Shown here one piece after another: positions 450 through 28,943 of a DNA stretch of 28,944 nt. Position 1 is the first letter of the stretch, and the number at the start of each line of letters is the position of its first letter. The translations under genes and the position numbers were made by a program. Source of the DNA: a virus (lineage: Duplodnaviria; Caudoviricetes); IMG/VR virus record IMGVR_UViG_3300044580_000534, positions 1 through 28,944 of that record. One strand, given 5' to 3'. The notes beneath the pieces were generated by a model. That model saw nothing but the letters and a program-made list of their open reading frames with translations. It did not search any database and was not told the origin of the DNA.

Positions 450-453
450 ACGC

Positions 454-840
454 ATGAAAATTCAATGGAAATTCGCAGACGGAACCACATCAGAAGTTGA
501 AGTCAATGAGGAAATCGGCAACTACATAACAGCATCACGACGCGAGGAGAGCAATCTCGCCCGTAAGGAGCGCTACCACTGCTATTCGCTCGACGCTATC
601 GATTACGAGGGACTCGAGTATGCGACAGACACTACTCCCGAAACCGATTTGATACGCGAAGAAGACGCCGCTCGGATCAACACTGCGCTGGACAAGCTTT
701 CGGAAACACAGAAACGGCGACTGTTAATGCTTGCTGATGGCTTGTCGGTTAATGAGATTGCCCGTATCGAAGACGTCGCTCCAAACGCTGCGTGGAAATC
801 AATCGAAAGCGCAAAGAAAAAATTTAAAAAGCATTTTTAG
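454..840 (+). CDS. Sigma-70 region-4 HTH protein (RNA polymerase sigma factor-like activator)
   Basis: C-terminal ALDKLSETQKRRLLMLADGLSVNEIARIEDV sigma-r4 HTH. Start moved to ATG454 after GAAAGGA SD. Confidence 0.8.
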   Translation: MKIQWKFADGTTSEVEVNEEIGNYITASRREESNLARKERYHCYSLDAIDYEGLEYATDTTPETDLIREEDAARINTALDKLSETQKRRLLMLADGLSVNEIARIEDVAPNAAWKSIESAKKKFKKHF

Positions 841-4997: not shown

Positions 4998-5789
4998 GGT
5001 TATAGAGATGCCCAGCGCTTTGTATGCCTGTGAAGCTGCGCCTGTACCTTCGCGTGCCGAGTTCATGGAACGTATATTCCTCGCCATACTGCCGGTTAAG
5101 GTTTCCATTGAGGTATCTACCAGTTCGGCGGCATATTTGTATGCTTGTAGCGATTCAGTACTCATGCCGGTAACAGTTGACATGGTGAGAATATCATCTG
5201 CATACTGTGAAGCGCCGACAGTCATATCGGTGAGAGCTTTGGCCGCTCCGACTGCAGCCGTTCCAATAGCTGCAAATGCAGCGCCCATGGCCACGCCTAT
5301 CCCTTTTAATGCCGAGCCGAGTTTTTCAAGTTTGTTTGAGGACTCCTCGACATCATCAACGGATTCTTCGACTACATTGCCGAATTCATCAACCTTTTGC
5401 CCGGCATCGTTATACCCACGATTCACATCACGAAGAGATTTTTCGTTTTCAGCCAGCTCACCCTCCATGCCGTTGAGCTCAGCCTGTGCCTTATTCAGTT
5501 GTATCTGCCAGTTTTGCGTGCGTCTGTCATTTTCACCGAAGGAGGAGGCGGCGTTGTCCAATGCAGCCTTTAGTGTAGCGATTTTCTCCCGCTGTGCATC
5601 GATTTCTTTATTCAAAACCGCATTTCGGGCGGTAATCGCCTGTACAGATTTGTCATTCTTATCAAATTGACTGGATACGAGGGTCATCTCGCTGCCCAAT
5701 ACTTTAAAGGACTGATTGATTTCCCGCAGGGCATCTTTAAATTGCTTTTCTCCCTCCAGACCAATTTTCAGGCCAAAGTTATCCGCCAT
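4989..5789 (-). pseudogene. Tail tape measure protein, 3'-truncated
   Basis: MADNFGLKIGLEGEKQFK start, coiled coil, Ala/Gly-rich hydrophobic segment. Follows the tail chaperone. Similarity ends at GISITDAN. Confidence 0.88.
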
Positions 5790-24824: not shown

Positions 24825-24996
24825 GTGGCAAAAGACGGTACAAACAGAGGTGGGCGCCGCGTGCGTGCTGGGGACAAACCACAGCCTCTTGCGGAAAAAA
24901 TCGCAGCAGGTAAAGCCGCACGGATTTTGGAAGCGCCAGAGTTTAAGCCAGAGTCCATGCTCGAAGCAAGCGAACTGGACGACACAGCAGACTTGA
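24825..24996 (+). pseudogene. terS: Terminase small subunit (P27-like), 3'-truncated at inversion junction
   Basis: MAKDGTNRGGRRVRAGDKP N-terminus after AAGGAGGTG SD; switches to antisense DUF2800 at ~24990-24996. Confidence 0.8.
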
Positions 24997-26091
24997 TATG
25001 TTCATAGGTGGACGCTTATCCGAGAGCGGAACTAACGTCGGCTTGCCTGGCGGTTTGATAATGAGCCCGCCGAGGACTTCGTTGAATTTTGATTTTCCCA
25101 TCAGCTTTTCCATCTCTGTGATGGTGATGAGACTTTGCCTGTAGATGTCACGATATCCGGCTGCCTTTGCTGCTGCAGCGACGGCTTCTTCATCGGAATA
25201 CTTACGATTGGAGCGCCCCTCAACCACCTTGAAGCCAGGCCACTGTTTACCGTGGTTCACAGCCGCATCGGTGGCATAGGCAATGATTTCATTAGCCCAG
25301 CTCGTCAGGTCACTGATTGAGGCGAGTATTTCAGATATCTCCTCATCAGAAAGCAATGGCGGTAAAGCAAACTCGAAAGCTGCCAGCTTCATCTTTGACT
25401 CAGCCCTTGCTCTGCACTTAACCGCTGCCCTGCAAAACTGGCAATGCTCTCCGGGCACATATTCACCACCGCCTTCATAGGCAATGGCTGCAGTAGGCTT
25501 TAGGACTTCATCTGCCCATTTGTAAAGCAACTCCTTCGAAACCGTATAAGTACTTACATTTTCGCGTCTCGGCTGAAAAATGGTCATGGATACGTTGTTG
25601 ATATCGTAAATGCCATCAAACAATTCCAAAGCACCGAGAGCGTAGAGCTTCATCTGCGGGTTATCCTCAGCTTCAACTAAAACGCCCTGACCGTACTTAA
25701 AATTCACGATGTGGAGCGTGCCATCGGCTATAATCACGCAATCTCCTGTACCGAAGCCATCCTTAACATATTTGGAGAAGTCCAATTTTTGTTCGATGAG
25801 CACCATCGGGTCGGAACATCTCTGCTTTGCCAGAGATATCTGTTCCAGCACGAAAGACACGTAATCGTCTGTATGAGCGTCCATCTCATCGCTGTCGTAC
25901 TTTGATACCGGCTTCTTGGAGCGCATCTTTAAGGCTTTACGGAGCTTGTGTTCAGCAAGCGCGTGAGCGGCTGTGCCCTCATCAGCAGCAGCGCCAGAGT
26001 TATCATCGAACTCCAACTCTAGCCGTGCCGACGGAGTACAGGCTAGCCAGCGGTGTGCACTGGAAGCAGAAAGAATAGCATGTTCACTCAT
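24990..26091 (-). CDS. DUF2800 PD-(D/E)XK exonuclease (Cas4/RecB-like), native stop lost
   Basis: HAILSASSAHRWLACTPS, GFGTGD, NPQMKLYALG, CQFC...CRAR. The last codons read antisense TerS. Confidence 0.88.
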
Positions 26092-26411
26092 TTCAGTGCC
26101 TCCGCTTCTGCAAGAAGGGCGGCATAATTGGTTGGATCGATTTGGCTGAGTTTTGACGCACCATACTTTTCAAGAAGAACTCGAACCTCGGCTGTAAAAC
26201 CGTCATGGGACTTTTCAGCCAAAACCGCACGCACTTGCTCCAATGTAACTCTCTTTTCCTCAGGCTTCTGAGTTGGTACATGGGCTGGTGTTTCAGGCTG
26301 TGATGCATCGACAGGCTCATTGCCTGCTATTGCGTCAGCCACTGCCTGCAAGCTGTCCGCCAGAGATCGCAGATCCGTGACAACATCAAGAAGCAGTTTG
26401 ATTTTGCTCAT
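26088..26411 (-). CDS. Phage hypothetical protein (often mis-annotated 'rRNA biogenesis rrp5')
   Basis: MSKIKLLLDVV and VTLEQVRAVLAEKS...LLEKYGASKLS; precedes DUF2800. Confidence 0.8.
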   Translation of the reverse strand: MSKIKLLLDVVTDLRSLADSLQAVADAIAGNEPVDASQPETPAHVPTQKPEEKRVTLEQVRAVLAEKSHDGFTAEVRVLLEKYGASKLSQIDPTNYAALLAEAEALK

Positions 26412-26613
26412 GCTTCACGCCTCCTTCCTTGATTTCTTTAATCTCGACCGTTTCAACCGAGTCGCCTGTCGTAATCACGAATACACCGACCTTCTCACCA
26501 AACAGCCAATTTAAAAGCCTACTGCGGATACTCTTAGAGCCGCTTTTTAACACGGGATCACGAATTCCTCCGGGTCTGGCAACGTTGATAGTAACCTTGT
26601 GTTTCAGACTCAT
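26386..26613 (-). CDS. Small conserved hypothetical protein (homologue of 924-1130)
   Basis: Shared RLL..LFGEK and GDSVE motifs; AAAGGAG SD before ATG26613. Confidence 0.8.
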   Translation of the reverse strand: MSLKHKVTINVARPGGIRDPVLKSGSKSIRSRLLNWLFGEKVGVFVITTGDSVETVEIKEIKEGGVKHEQNQTAS

Positions 26614-26645
26614 GTTTTGTCTCCTTTCTGGGGGCAATTTCCTGC

Positions 26646-26687
26646 CCCTCAGTGATAAGCGAAAAAGAGGGTTCTTTCGAACCCCCC
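26646..26687 (-). promoter_or_regulatory. GGGGGTTCGAA-N15-GCTTAT-cact-GAGGG motif downstream of sigma-r4 gene
   Basis: Repeated at 18243 with identical spacing. Confidence 0.65.
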
Positions 26688-26688
26688 A

Positions 26689-27180
26689 TTAGGGAAAGAA
26701 TTTCAGAAGCTTTTGATGTATCTTTTTCTGGCGATTACGGATTGCTGCCTCACTTACCCCTTCTTCAGCGGCTATGTCTGTATTAGAGCGCTTTGATATG
26801 TATTTCTTCTCAAACAGAATGCGCTGCTGGGGCTCAAGGGTCTCCATTGCTTCACGAAGTCGGGACAGTCTTTCTTCATGCTCAATCTCTTCTTCTTTGG
26901 CTATAAGAACAGCTTCTGGGTTTGTGCGGTTATCGGCCAGACGTTTATTACGATCGCCAGCCTCTTCGCCTTCATGGTAAGCATCCAGGTGTTCTGCGAT
27001 TCGGTAGTCATATCGCCGCTGCTCGTCTACCTCTTCATCATCCATTGAATGAAGAAGTTCGATGTCAGCCTCGGTGATGCCGTCTTGGCCAGGTACAAGT
27101 TCAATTACCTTTCGACCATCAGCATCGTAATAAATGTAGGAAGTACGTTTCTTTTTGCTTGTCTTGACATGTCTTTGCAT
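26689..27180 (-). CDS. Sigma-70 region-4 HTH protein
   Basis: LEPQQRILFEKKYISKRSNTDIAAEEGVSEAAIRNR HTH; ATG27180 after AAAGGAG. Confidence 0.85.
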   Translation of the reverse strand: MQRHVKTSKKKRTSYIYYDADGRKVIELVPGQDGITEADIELLHSMDDEEVDEQRRYDYRIAEHLDAYHEGEEAGDRNKRLADNRTNPEAVLIAKEEEIEHEERLSRLREAMETLEPQQRILFEKKYISKRSNTDIAAEEGVSEAAIRNRQKKIHQKLLKFFP

Positions 27181-27183
27181 TTT

Positions 27184-27210
27184 TTGGCTCCTTTCAACTT
27201 CAGGAGCCAA
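27184..27210 (-). promoter_or_regulatory. SD-sequestering stem before sigma-r4 start
   Basis: Perfect 9-bp inverted repeat TTGGCTCCT/AGGAGCCAA containing the AGGAG SD. Confidence 0.65.
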
Positions 27211-27223
27211 GCCGTGCTAATAT

Positions 27224-27315
27224 AAAAAGCCGGGCATTACGAAATACAAATAGCCGGATGGTTAGGAATTTGCATTCCGTAACTCATCCGGCCATTTGGT
27301 AGCTCGTGCCCGGCT
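27224..27315 (-). ncRNA. 88-nt leader hairpin plus U-tract (attenuator-like)
   Basis: AGCCGGGCA/TGCCCGGCT, CAAATGGCCGGATG/CATCCGGCTATTTG and GGAAT-GCAA-ATTCC (GNRA loop), followed by TTTTT. Confidence 0.7.
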
Positions 27316-27348
27316 CCTTTGCTCGGTATGAACAATGGTATTTTAATG

Positions 27349-27492
27349 TTATTTCTTATTTGAAGGTTTTGTTTGGGATAGTGCACTGGCTGCGACAGAC
27401 TTTGTCTTTGCGCTGGTACGTCCATCACGTAGCAAAGACGATGCTTTACGCGCAACAGTAGCAGACGTTTGCTTTCGGTTTATTTTGGGCAT
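27349..27492 (-). CDS. 47-aa highly basic peptide (not in ORF track)
   Basis: AAGGAGGTG SD then MPKINRKQTSATVARKASSLLRDGRTSAKTKSVAASALSQTKPSNKK*. Confidence 0.75.
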   Translation of the reverse strand: MPKINRKQTSATVARKASSLLRDGRTSAKTKSVAASALSQTKPSNKK

Positions 27493-27542
27493 ATGTATCT
27501 CACCTCCTTTTGTAAGTCTGGGTATTGTGTGCTTTATCTAAA

Positions 27543-27695
27543 TCACGGGACTCTCATTGTGCATTCTTCGATGCAAGGAACCGTGACGAGCTTCTTACAC
27601 TGTGGGCATTTGAGCGAAACTTCGATTTTCTCTTTTGGTAGTTTTGAGATATCAAAGGCTCGTCTCCCGCACTTTGGACACTTCATCTTCTTCAT
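27543..27695 (-). CDS. 50-aa zinc-ribbon protein, Mu Com-like (not in ORF track)
   Basis: AAAGGAG SD then MKKMKCPKCGRRAFD...SLKCPQCKKLV with two CxxC pairs. Confidence 0.75.
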   Translation of the reverse strand: MKKMKCPKCGRRAFDISKLPKEKIEVSLKCPQCKKLVTVPCIEECTMRVP

Positions 27696-27717
27696 ATGAA
27701 TTCTCCTTTCTAAACAA

Positions 27718-27743
27718 ATTCGCGTGTTCGCGATTTTCTAACA
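27718..27743 (-). promoter_or_regulatory. Putative repressor operator, copy 1
   Basis: ATTCGCGTGTTCGCgatTTTCTAACA, 23/26 identical to 28918-28943, just upstream of the zinc-ribbon SD. Confidence 0.7.
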
Positions 27744-27781: not shown

Positions 27782-28501
27782 TTAGAACAAAATACTCCCA
27801 TCCTCGACCATACTCCCTTCGACTAAACCAAGATCAAACAAACGATATTTCATAGCGGTATATGATACATTAAACATATCTGCCATCTCTTCAACGCGTA
27901 GATCTACAGCAAGTGACCATTTTATCGGTAATGATTTGTGTGAGGGTATTTTCATAGTCTCGCGGAAAGCGAAAATCACAGCTTGGCGCGGCATAAGAAA
28001 GGCAGCGGTGGCTGCATTTGCTTGCCACTCGGTGATGTCCATACCAGTAAGATTTGGTTTCACTTTCCCGATACGGGCTGAAATATCCTGTGCTCGGCTA
28101 AAAGAGCGCTCTCGAAGAGCACGCTGATTAAACACTTTTTGATGAAGAATCTGATGGAAGGCTTCATGAATTACGGTAAAGTTCTCACGGCCTTTCACAG
28201 CTCCCGGCGCAACAAGTGAGTTATCAATCAAAATTGTACCTTTGGTTACAGGATGCTTTTTAGGGAGTTCACCCTCCCCACCATCCCAAACCCACCAATA
28301 TCCATCATTAAACGCAGTTACACCAAGAATCGATTGGTTGGGTGTTAGGTTCTTCCATTCATAAGGTACATCAAGACACGTTTCTATAAAGTCGTAGACA
28401 TCAATACCTTTAGGAATAGTAAGGCGCTCACTGTCAAATTCACGTAACTTGTCCTCAGCAATTTTTTCTAATTGGGCAACGCTATAATTATAGAACCACA
28501 A
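27782..28501 (-). CDS. ImmA/IrrE-family metallopeptidase
   Basis: RENFTVIHEAFHQ (HExxH), EWQANAATAAFLMP, FNVSYTAMKYRL; adjacent to the repressor. Confidence 0.9.
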   Translation of the reverse strand: MWFYNYSVAQLEKIAEDKLREFDSERLTIPKGIDVYDFIETCLDVPYEWKNLTPNQSILGVTAFNDGYWWVWDGGEGELPKKHPVTKGTILIDNSLVAPGAVKGRENFTVIHEAFHQILHQKVFNQRALRERSFSRAQDISARIGKVKPNLTGMDITEWQANAATAAFLMPRQAVIFAFRETMKIPSHKSLPIKWSLAVDLRVEEMADMFNVSYTAMKYRLFDLGLVEGSMVEDGSILF

Positions 28502-28515
28502 ATCTCAGTTCCCCC

Positions 28516-28896
28516 CTAATTAGACTCTTTTTCTTTGGCTTCGAGCATCTCGATAACCTTTTTCCATTCCTCATCTCCAGCATTTATATCCCTAGCTTTG
28601 CGAAGTGCAGCCCTGAGAGTCTCATTACCCATGATATATTCTGGTAGATCAGGTGAAACACTGTGCTTCTTTGCAAGAGCTGCAAGATCGTAAAGCGTGT
28701 TAGCCTCCTCTTGTGTCAATTGAAGCACTTCTATGATTTTTTCGATTTTATCTTTGTCAGGCGGGTAACGATGTCCCTTCTCAATATCGCTTAGGTAAGC
28801 TGGTGCCATGTTATCTAGTAACTCTGCTAGTTTACGAAGATTAATCTTTTTCTCCTTACGCTTCATTTCAACATACTGACCAAAAGTCAGATTCAT
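28516..28896 (-). CDS. Xre-family HTH repressor (ImmR-like)
   Basis: LRKLAELL...APAYLSDIEKG HTH; AGGAGG SD before ATG28896. Confidence 0.9.
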   Translation of the reverse strand: MNLTFGQYVEMKRKEKKINLRKLAELLDNMAPAYLSDIEKGHRYPPDKDKIEKIIEVLQLTQEEANTLYDLAALAKKHSVSPDLPEYIMGNETLRAALRKARDINAGDEEWKKVIEMLEAKEKESN

Positions 28897-28917
28897 TTTA
28901 CATACCTCCTGTAATAT

Positions 28918-28943
28918 ATTCGCGTGTTCGCTAATTTCTAACA
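28918..28943 (-). promoter_or_regulatory. Putative repressor operator, copy 2
   Basis: ATTCGCGTGTTCGCtaaTTTCTAACA just upstream of the repressor SD. Confidence 0.7.

Follow-up and report, generated by a model that had tools for sequence, protein, structure and literature searches.

What does the structured leader in front of an early sigma-like gene do in a temperate phage, and what part has the small zinc-ribbon gene that precedes it? We asked this of the virus record IMGVR_UViG_3300044580_000534 (IMG/VR; Caudoviricetes), whose whole length of 28,944 bases is the window analysed here. An earlier reading of the letters alone (the sequence-only reading) had placed on its minus strand an operator, a CxxC/CxxC gene of 50 codons, a basic gene of 47 codons, a hairpin of 88 nucleotides (nt), a 9-bp stem hiding the Shine-Dalgarno (SD) sequence, and a gene with sigma-70 region 4 (sigma-r4) followed by a motif. 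All of these were located on that strand (Table 1). The same reading supposed that derepression yields an RNA-binding protein that opens the leader. Our analysis retains the leader as the gate of the sigma-r4 gene and moves the main switch: it is likely to be antitermination through a 5' hairpin that had gone unseen, and not only an opening of the SD stem. We put the probability at about 0.6 that the 50-residue zinc ribbon is a site-specific antiterminator acting on the hairpin at 27331-27284.

A conserved hairpin competes with an intrinsic terminator

The first 48 nt of the leader, folded alone, give one irregular hairpin in 98 of 99 distinct elements, and in the window the isolated 5' domain reaches a minimum free energy (MFE) of -16.6 kcal/mol (z -2.95). 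The core pairs are kept in 97-99 of the 99 elements, and the outermost tested pair near the hairpin base holds in just 56. The pair next to the base, which the genome search pattern did not fix, is AU in 88 elements, CG in 5, GC in 2, GU in 3 and unpaired in 1; one inner pair is CG in 62, UA in 32 and UG in 4. For 43 rows (42 distinct) picked from the 99 for diversity, none of 500 shuffles matched the real alignment in paired share, two-sided cells or covariation score, results that are not probabilities because the rows are related and the search patterns had already set many of the columns. Slid controls were paired at 14-35%. Four loci found by protein, not selected by RNA (L169, L171, L174 and L196), retain the RNA layout with altered letters. 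We discarded a smaller 5' hairpin, CCG-N5-CGG, whose third pair is broken in 7 of the 99 elements and shows no two-sided change. Rfam had no match to the window at gathering score, the best bit score in the E-value scan being 20.7.

Since the hairpin base pairs its 5' strand with the 5' arm of the terminator, hairpin and terminator cannot coexist; by these comparisons they are predicted to be mutually exclusive, both being conserved with compensatory changes. A script divided the 99 elements into 33 minimal and 66 long forms, a few of them misclassed. Minimal forms consist of the hairpin, the terminator and a U-tract that is mostly 7 in 8, several have the next gene immediately behind, and most lack an SD stem. 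In the minimal L021, L133, L138 and L141 the next gene lies about 80-83 nt past a conserved ACCAAAT, soon after the strong U-tract, so that read-through would be needed to reach it.

The RNA, the zinc ribbon and a sigma-r4 gene occur together

Scans that started from the RNA returned at least 73 loci each in a genome set and a viral set, the latter with a 16-mer that can also match by chance. A small CxxC/CxxC open reading frame (ORF) lies within 500 nt upstream of 67 of the 73 listed genome loci, whereas 7 of 1544 positions drawn at random from those loci have one. Co-occurrence in relatives had been put forward as a check by the sequence-only reading. A zinc-ribbon profile built from the same loci, and therefore partly circular, found the gene in 70 of the 73 listed; the three misses are the second site of L125 and, as real misses, L096 and L136. 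In the viral set the gene accompanies 56 of the 73 listed loci; among the other 17 are places where the 16-mer matched by chance or the contig ends.

The stop codon of the zinc ribbon lies at any distance from the element between overlap and 259 nt, with or without an inserted gene, and in L103, L112 and the KTR types described below the element overlaps the last codons. L125 carries a second antiterminator/terminator copy 1734 nt downstream, before a DNA polymerase gene. The variable distance and the second sites speak for a protein working in trans at each terminator, rather than for ribosome coupling or a processive kind of antitermination.

Copy number and layout also vary elsewhere. Two antiterminator/terminator copies per locus were seen in L125, L111, L112 and L234, and one genome (G235, with L173 and L196) holds eight copies of a short zinc-ribbon variant. 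In L196 an altered-letter antiterminator stands ahead of a D5-type primase gene, and in L186 six GAGCC repeats in a row lead into the 5' arm of the terminator downstream of the zinc-ribbon gene.

That the leader gates a sigma-r4 gene, as had been proposed, is in keeping with the first downstream genes: among 91, Sigma70_r4 was matched by 60 (E<=0.001), a DeoR-type helix-turn-helix (HTH) by 3, a DNA polymerase by 1 and a DUF family by 1, and 26 had no match. The basic gene fared differently. The ORF is present in the window and is not conserved across homologues, occurring in 15 of the 73 listed RNA-first genome loci, and its family also occurs without the module, once antisense inside the early region of a different phage and once by itself on a chromosome (L252, L254). 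We therefore rejected it as a core part; the basic gene is accessory. Its family was also matched in a Deinococcus radiodurans control, and the Atlas clusters matched by the protein were unnamed.

The zinc ribbon is distantly related to Com

The sequence-only reading had likened the 50-residue protein to Com of phage Mu, and profile comparison agrees. In an alignment of 74 rows the four cysteines are invariant and an R and a D are conserved. The structural model is a four-strand ribbon (predicted local distance difference test, pLDDT, 87), a small CCCC ribbon as in the Com family. The window protein matches phrog_6417 ('translational regulator') at E 3e-4, a family matched by 47 of the 74 homologues (best 9e-16), and 11 of the 74 reach the Com family PF10122 at E<=0.01 (best 3.8e-5). 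Aligned by hhalign with nine true Com proteins, all nine of which match PF10122, the zinc-ribbon profile scored a probability of 97.3 and a pairwise E of 1.6e-11, scores that the common cysteines inflate; against twelve Cys_rich_KTR (PF14205) proteins the probability was 94.9. A sequence search of solved structures with the zinc ribbon returned generic zinc fingers only, and a viral fold search gave no match at E<=0.001. On these profiles we regard the protein as a distant Com relative.

The RNA offers a possible counterpart. PMC6483171 reports that the target of Com is CC(N)2-3GAG within a hairpin that a C-G pair closes, that the GA is crucial, and that RNAs selected for Com binding carry two copies of the motif. 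In our hairpin the inner module has the sequence YC(N)GAR; it retains the closing C-G and the unpaired A of the Com site, in a longer loop. A second module, GCC/G[A]GC, which takes in the 5' arm of the terminator, comes from our reading of the fold and resembles the published Com site.

Long leaders combine three mutually exclusive sets of helices

In the long forms, to which the window belongs, the first U-tract is weaker and the 3' arm is duplicated. We analysed 61 of them, having dropped L095, L139, L141, L154 and L155 from the 66 by eye. Three helix sets pass cell-level shuffle controls: the OFF fold (terminator, x:B and SD stem), the antiterminator with helix H2, and H2 together with x:C, a rival for the anti-SD arm. 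The terminator loop doubles as one strand of H2. For the antiterminator with H2, the pair-level count is not above shuffles (158/500). Median energies are -67.8 kcal/mol for the OFF fold, -45.8 for the antiterminator with H2 and -56.3 for H2 with x:C, the last lying below the second in 60 of 61 leaders. The SD sequence is mostly free in 27 of the 61 folds with H2 and x:C, and in none of the 61 folds of either other set.

In the window, the leader region folds at z = -9.1, and none of 200 shuffles folds as well. The 88-nt hairpin described by the sequence-only reading (27315-27228) is there, with its GCAA loop and U-run, but as only one of several mutually exclusive folds; with a GNRA cap in just 18 of the 61 long leaders, we rejected the cap as a recognition site. 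The 9-bp stem hiding the SD sequence was also found (27210-27202 with 27192-27184); a 27-nt fragment of it that stops three bases short of the end of the 3' arm does not stand out when folded by itself (z = -1.4). The covariation suggests that long forms add an anti-anti-SD helix, weak in the window.

Proposed mechanism and alternative explanations

In a lysogen, the repressor would keep the zinc-ribbon promoter low and the leader would terminate, insulating the lytic genes; with the repressor pair on the same strand as the genes it controls, a terminator would be necessary. Cleavage of the repressor by the ImmA-like protease, by analogy with ICEBs1, would lift the zinc ribbon over a binding threshold. 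The protein would then bind the bulged hairpin in the nascent RNA and hold the 5' arm of the terminator paired there, so that RNA polymerase would pass the terminator and transcribe the sigma-r4 gene and the replication module. The resulting sigma-r4 protein would activate a promoter of its own just after its gene. In long leaders H2 would lock the read-through fold with the SD sequence still hidden. Least certain is the step after that, in which translation would start once the protein leaves and arm x captures arm C.

Several observations weigh against this account. The OFF fold is far more stable (-79.6 vs -56.4 kcal/mol), so binding must act during transcription. Release of the SD sequence is modelled in just 27 of 61 long leaders, and in the window the fold with H2 and x:C frees one of four SD bases, at -62.4 kcal/mol against -62.9 for a rival that hides them. 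Few antiterminator pairs vary, in part because the search patterns fixed them, and the rows are related. The spacing is 4-18 nt (6 nt in 71 of 99 elements), where Com has 2-3 nt. The window protein falls below the Pfam cut-off for Com, with PF10122 outside the best 25 of 37 families. The RNA occurs without a detectable zinc ribbon in L096 and L136, and 22 of 51 small zinc-ribbon ORFs found by protein have no called terminator.

Other explanations fit parts of the same evidence. The covariation of C:D and x:C in long leaders, and an SD sequence hidden in 61 of 61 OFF folds, would suit a switch of translation only, in which the protein frees the SD sequence as in Mu com/mom and termination is incidental; Com itself is a translational activator (PMC6483171). 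We find this unlikely, given minimal leaders that have the antiterminator and a 7-of-8 U-tract with no SD stem, and a predicted protein-bound fold that hides the SD sequence in 61 of 61. That bound fold, with the lower energy of the SD-opening fold in 60 of 61 leaders, could also make the zinc ribbon a brake or delay that holds the read-through fold with its SD sequence hidden, or a protein that needs a second signal (redox, zinc or a host factor); an upstream repressor on the same strand in 50 of 79 loci means, besides, that the protein may already be made in the lysogen. Binding in minimal leaders, however, can favour read-through only, and a second operator-like repeat precedes the zinc ribbon, which leaves a braking role quite unlikely.

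A riboswitch-like element for a metabolite or a host protein, with the zinc ribbon as linked bystander, would account for a strongly conserved bulged hairpin upstream of a terminator and for the two loci without a zinc-ribbon gene. We hold it very unlikely in view of the lack of an Rfam family, the co-occurrence in 67 of 73 listed loci, RNA letters that shift with the protein subfamily and a module resembling the known Com site. The OFF fold is the MFE structure, and an insulator would be useful behind a same-strand repressor operon, as if the terminator were constitutive and the sigma-r4 gene had a separate inducible promoter. This we judge highly improbable: it leaves the conserved alternative hairpin and H2 unexplained, minimal forms have little room for a promoter, and no sigma-70 promoter site was found between leader and sigma gene in the window. 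Equally improbable is ribosome-coupled attenuation, in which a ribosome ending on the upstream small ORF sets the fold; the elements overlapping the last zinc-ribbon codons in L103, L112 and the KTR types would suit it, but not the stop distance, which runs from an overlap up to 259 nt whether or not a gene is inserted, nor the invariant cysteines. Site-specific antitermination by the zinc ribbon remains our preferred reading.

Similar modules follow other Com-like genes

Starting from the protein, a terminator was called within 330 nt after 29 of 51 small zinc-ribbon ORFs. The GCC/G[A]GC module overlaps 21 of these 29 terminators (20 of 28 distinct), against 36 of 692 other terminators, a contrast that is optimistic because the descriptor was written after these loci had been seen; its final form takes in modules with the bulge on the terminator side. 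The exact bipartite motif from SELEX (systematic ligand evolution by exponential enrichment) overlaps the 5' arm of the terminator at 5 distinct loci of two lineages (four related thiolase leaders and L179), against 0 of 692. In L222, L223, L224, L226 and L228 a true Com-family gene is followed by a terminator with the SELEX motif and then by an acetyl-CoA acetyltransferase gene; the motif is exact in four of the five and one nt longer in L228. These Com genes apparently represent a metabolic use of the same predicted switch. Excerpts of PMC3299994 describe Com homologues solely in front of mom or methyltransferases.

Six of the eight terminators called at Cys_rich_KTR loci (L201, L202, L203, L206, L207 and L221) hold G[A]GC in the 5' arm, partnered by a GCC that lies upstream. 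Some of these loci show two stacked bulged-A modules where the gene ends. PF14205, which we take to be Orf6 of Tn916, resembles the window's system in its CxxC/CxxC profile, in the terminator with a G[A]GC module and, in L201, in a sigma-r4 gene downstream; it differs in its other RNA layout, which overlaps the last codons. We found no function for Cys_rich_KTR in the literature searched.

Tentatively, and with less than even odds, these families can be drawn together: Com-fold zinc ribbons, including the KTR proteins of conjugative elements and chromosomal Com before thiolase operons, might be a widespread, unrecognised class of RNA-binding antiterminators in Firmicutes, recognising bulge modules of the GCC/G[A]GC kind in the arms of terminators, with long phage leaders working by binding and then release: transcription would pass while the protein is bound, and translation would begin once it has left. 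If so, PF14205 and phrog_6417 would gain a candidate function. From one subfamily to another the letters of the protein change along with those of the RNA, which points to orthogonal pairs that might serve in synthetic switches.

Genomic context of the module

Upstream of the zinc ribbon, the window has an XRE repressor adjoining an M78 protease with an HExxH motif, and an operator-like repeat, at the place of the operator in the sequence-only reading, precedes the zinc ribbon and recurs before the repressor (Table 1). Across 46 related loci, the repeat common to the repressor and zinc-ribbon upstream regions outscores all 20 shuffles in 21, its letters varying between groups of loci. Of the 79 loci with enough DNA, 61 have a repressor homologue upstream; it shares the strand in 50 and is divergent in 11.

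Table 1 Features of the module and its surroundings in the window
Feature	Position	Strand	Evidence
31-nt repeat, copy 1; likely promoter plus operator before the repressor	28913..28943	-	87% identity to 27713-27743
XRE-type repressor, 126 aa, ImmR-like	28516..28896	-	HTH_3 E 4e-9
ImmA/IrrE-like metalloprotease, 239 aa, HEAFH motif	27782..28501	-	Peptidase_M78 E 1.2e-5
31-nt repeat, copy 2, TCGCG-N4-CGCGA palindrome; likely operator of the zinc-ribbon promoter	27713..27743	-	Repeat comparison
CCCC zinc ribbon, 50 aa, distant Com relative; predicted antiterminator protein	27543..27695	-	phrog_6417, PF10122 profile, model
Basic protein, 47 aa, accessory insertion	27349..27492	-	phrog_5079 E 4e-18
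Predicted antiterminator hairpin; leaves four adenines unpaired, contains two GCC/G[A]GC modules and takes up the terminator 5' arm	27284..27331	-	MFE, conservation, covariation
GCC/G[A]GC module pairings	27324-27321 with 27292-27290; 27314-27312 with 27305-27302	-	Reading of the fold
OFF fold: 88-nt hairpin plus U-run, arm x with arm B around T1; second terminator	27222..27315	-	x:B 4/10 pairs with two-sided changes
Inner intrinsic terminator T1, stem 27293-27252, weakened U-tract behind	27242..27293	-	-26.1 kcal/mol, z -5.8; 7/18 pairs with two-sided changes
Helix H2, 27283-27269 (upper terminator arm and loop) with 27250-27236 (U-tract region); excludes T1	27236..27283	-	95% of cells paired; 4/8 pairs two-sided
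SD-hiding stem C:D; arm C alternatively pairs with arm x (27317-27308)	27184..27212	-	C:D 87% paired; x:C 93%, 4/11 pairs two-sided
Sigma-70 region-4 protein, 163 aa, likely activator	26689..27180	-	PF08281 (Sigma70_r4_2) E 1.9e-8; TIGR02937 45.5 bits, over cut-off
Motif after the sigma stop codon, likely the sigma protein's own promoter	26630..26688	-	By eye
Start of replication module: phrog_7234, phrog_408, DUF2800 exonuclease (3' end runs into junction near 24990)	24990..26613	-	Pfam and PHROG matches

The sigma-r4 gene and the motif after its stop codon were both confirmed. By eye, the same letters follow all 8 sigma genes of this subfamily; a hairpin called in the motif region is not kept among the 8, and a general regular expression for the motif failed (6 of 81). 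Used as a query, the sigma protein found 2 loci only. A second sigma-r4 gene at 451-840 (plus strand), close to the sigma gene behind the leader in L076, has a different leader without the conserved 5' motif and its own motif after the stop; the conserved 5' leader motif has a single match in the window.

Head, tail and replication genes are all present in the window, which looks by appearance like a patchwork of related phage pieces. The DUF2800 ORF meets reverse-strand DNA near 24990, a tape measure and a DNA polymerase are both cut off where they join near 5030, and a further patchwork point lies about 16200; the window holds two DNA polymerases and two helicases of one family. A near-identical locus (L160) occurs in Anaerovoracaceae, and most named hosts in the genome set belong to Bacillota/Clostridia. 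A search with the zinc ribbon found 16 viral loci, and among the matches listed the gene order and the leader recur. One GenBank phage carries the module; it is filed under Candidatus Heliusvirales, with the genes annotated as hypothetical proteins. In the main text of PMC11283538, as far as excerpted, the words riboswitch, terminator, sigma, zinc and repressor are absent. A plasmid search with the RNA gave no real match.

Contigs assembled from RNA in 8 of 24 runs, from 7 studies, were set aside as evidence, as assembled contigs show neither ends nor levels. Single contigs (X1, X4) span the repressor to the basic gene. Contig ends fall inside the leader at 27298-27325 in 5 runs of 4 studies, with three more at 27338-27370 and none bridging the leader; strong hairpins can break libraries and assemblies.

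Comparison with known systems

Neither this RNA nor an antiterminator of Com type was described in the literature searched, which did not extend to the supplementary catalogues of candidate RNAs, where the motif might appear with no mechanism attached. By the tests made, the module belongs to neither the BglG/RAT nor the lambda N family. In BglG, SacY and LicT, a small RNA-binding domain stabilises an irregular hairpin, the ribonucleic antiterminator (RAT), that overlaps the 5' arm of a terminator. The likeness lies in an irregular hairpin mutually exclusive with an intrinsic terminator and in one site per gated terminator. Here, however, the fold is unrelated, PTS regulation domains (PRDs) for sensing are absent, Rfam gave no match, and control appears to be by amount, via the repressor; neither a CAT-PRD protein nor a RAT consensus was matched in the region by Pfam or Rfam.

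Lambda N is an arginine-rich peptide that acts with nut sites in early antitermination by processive modification of RNA polymerase. Here too, the first small gene after the operator would unlock early regulators and replication genes, but the protein is a zinc ribbon and its site overlaps the terminator. The separate copy at the second terminator in L125 argues for site-specific rather than processive action. In ICEBs1, the XRE repressor ImmR is reportedly cleaved by ImmA, the M78 metalloprotease encoded next to it. The window likewise has an XRE repressor beside an M78 metalloprotease; what differs is the strand, which the pair shares with the genes under its control (a same-strand repressor in 50 of 79 loci).

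Mu com/mom shares with the module a small CCCC zinc ribbon encoded just upstream of an RNA site (putative here), a hairpin closed by C-G with an accessible GA, and a downstream gene that is activated (predicted here). In our system the RNA site overlaps an intrinsic terminator and not merely a stem that inhibits translation, two modules stand in one 48-nt hairpin with the longer spacing given above, and the target is a sigma-r4 early regulator instead of mom or a methyltransferase, no methyltransferase family being matched among the 91 first downstream genes. If the antiterminator reading holds, a 50-residue protein and a 48-nt RNA would provide a cheaply testable route from derepression to lytic expression in a common group of temperate Firmicute phages, and Com would extend from one translational activator to a family of antiterminators.

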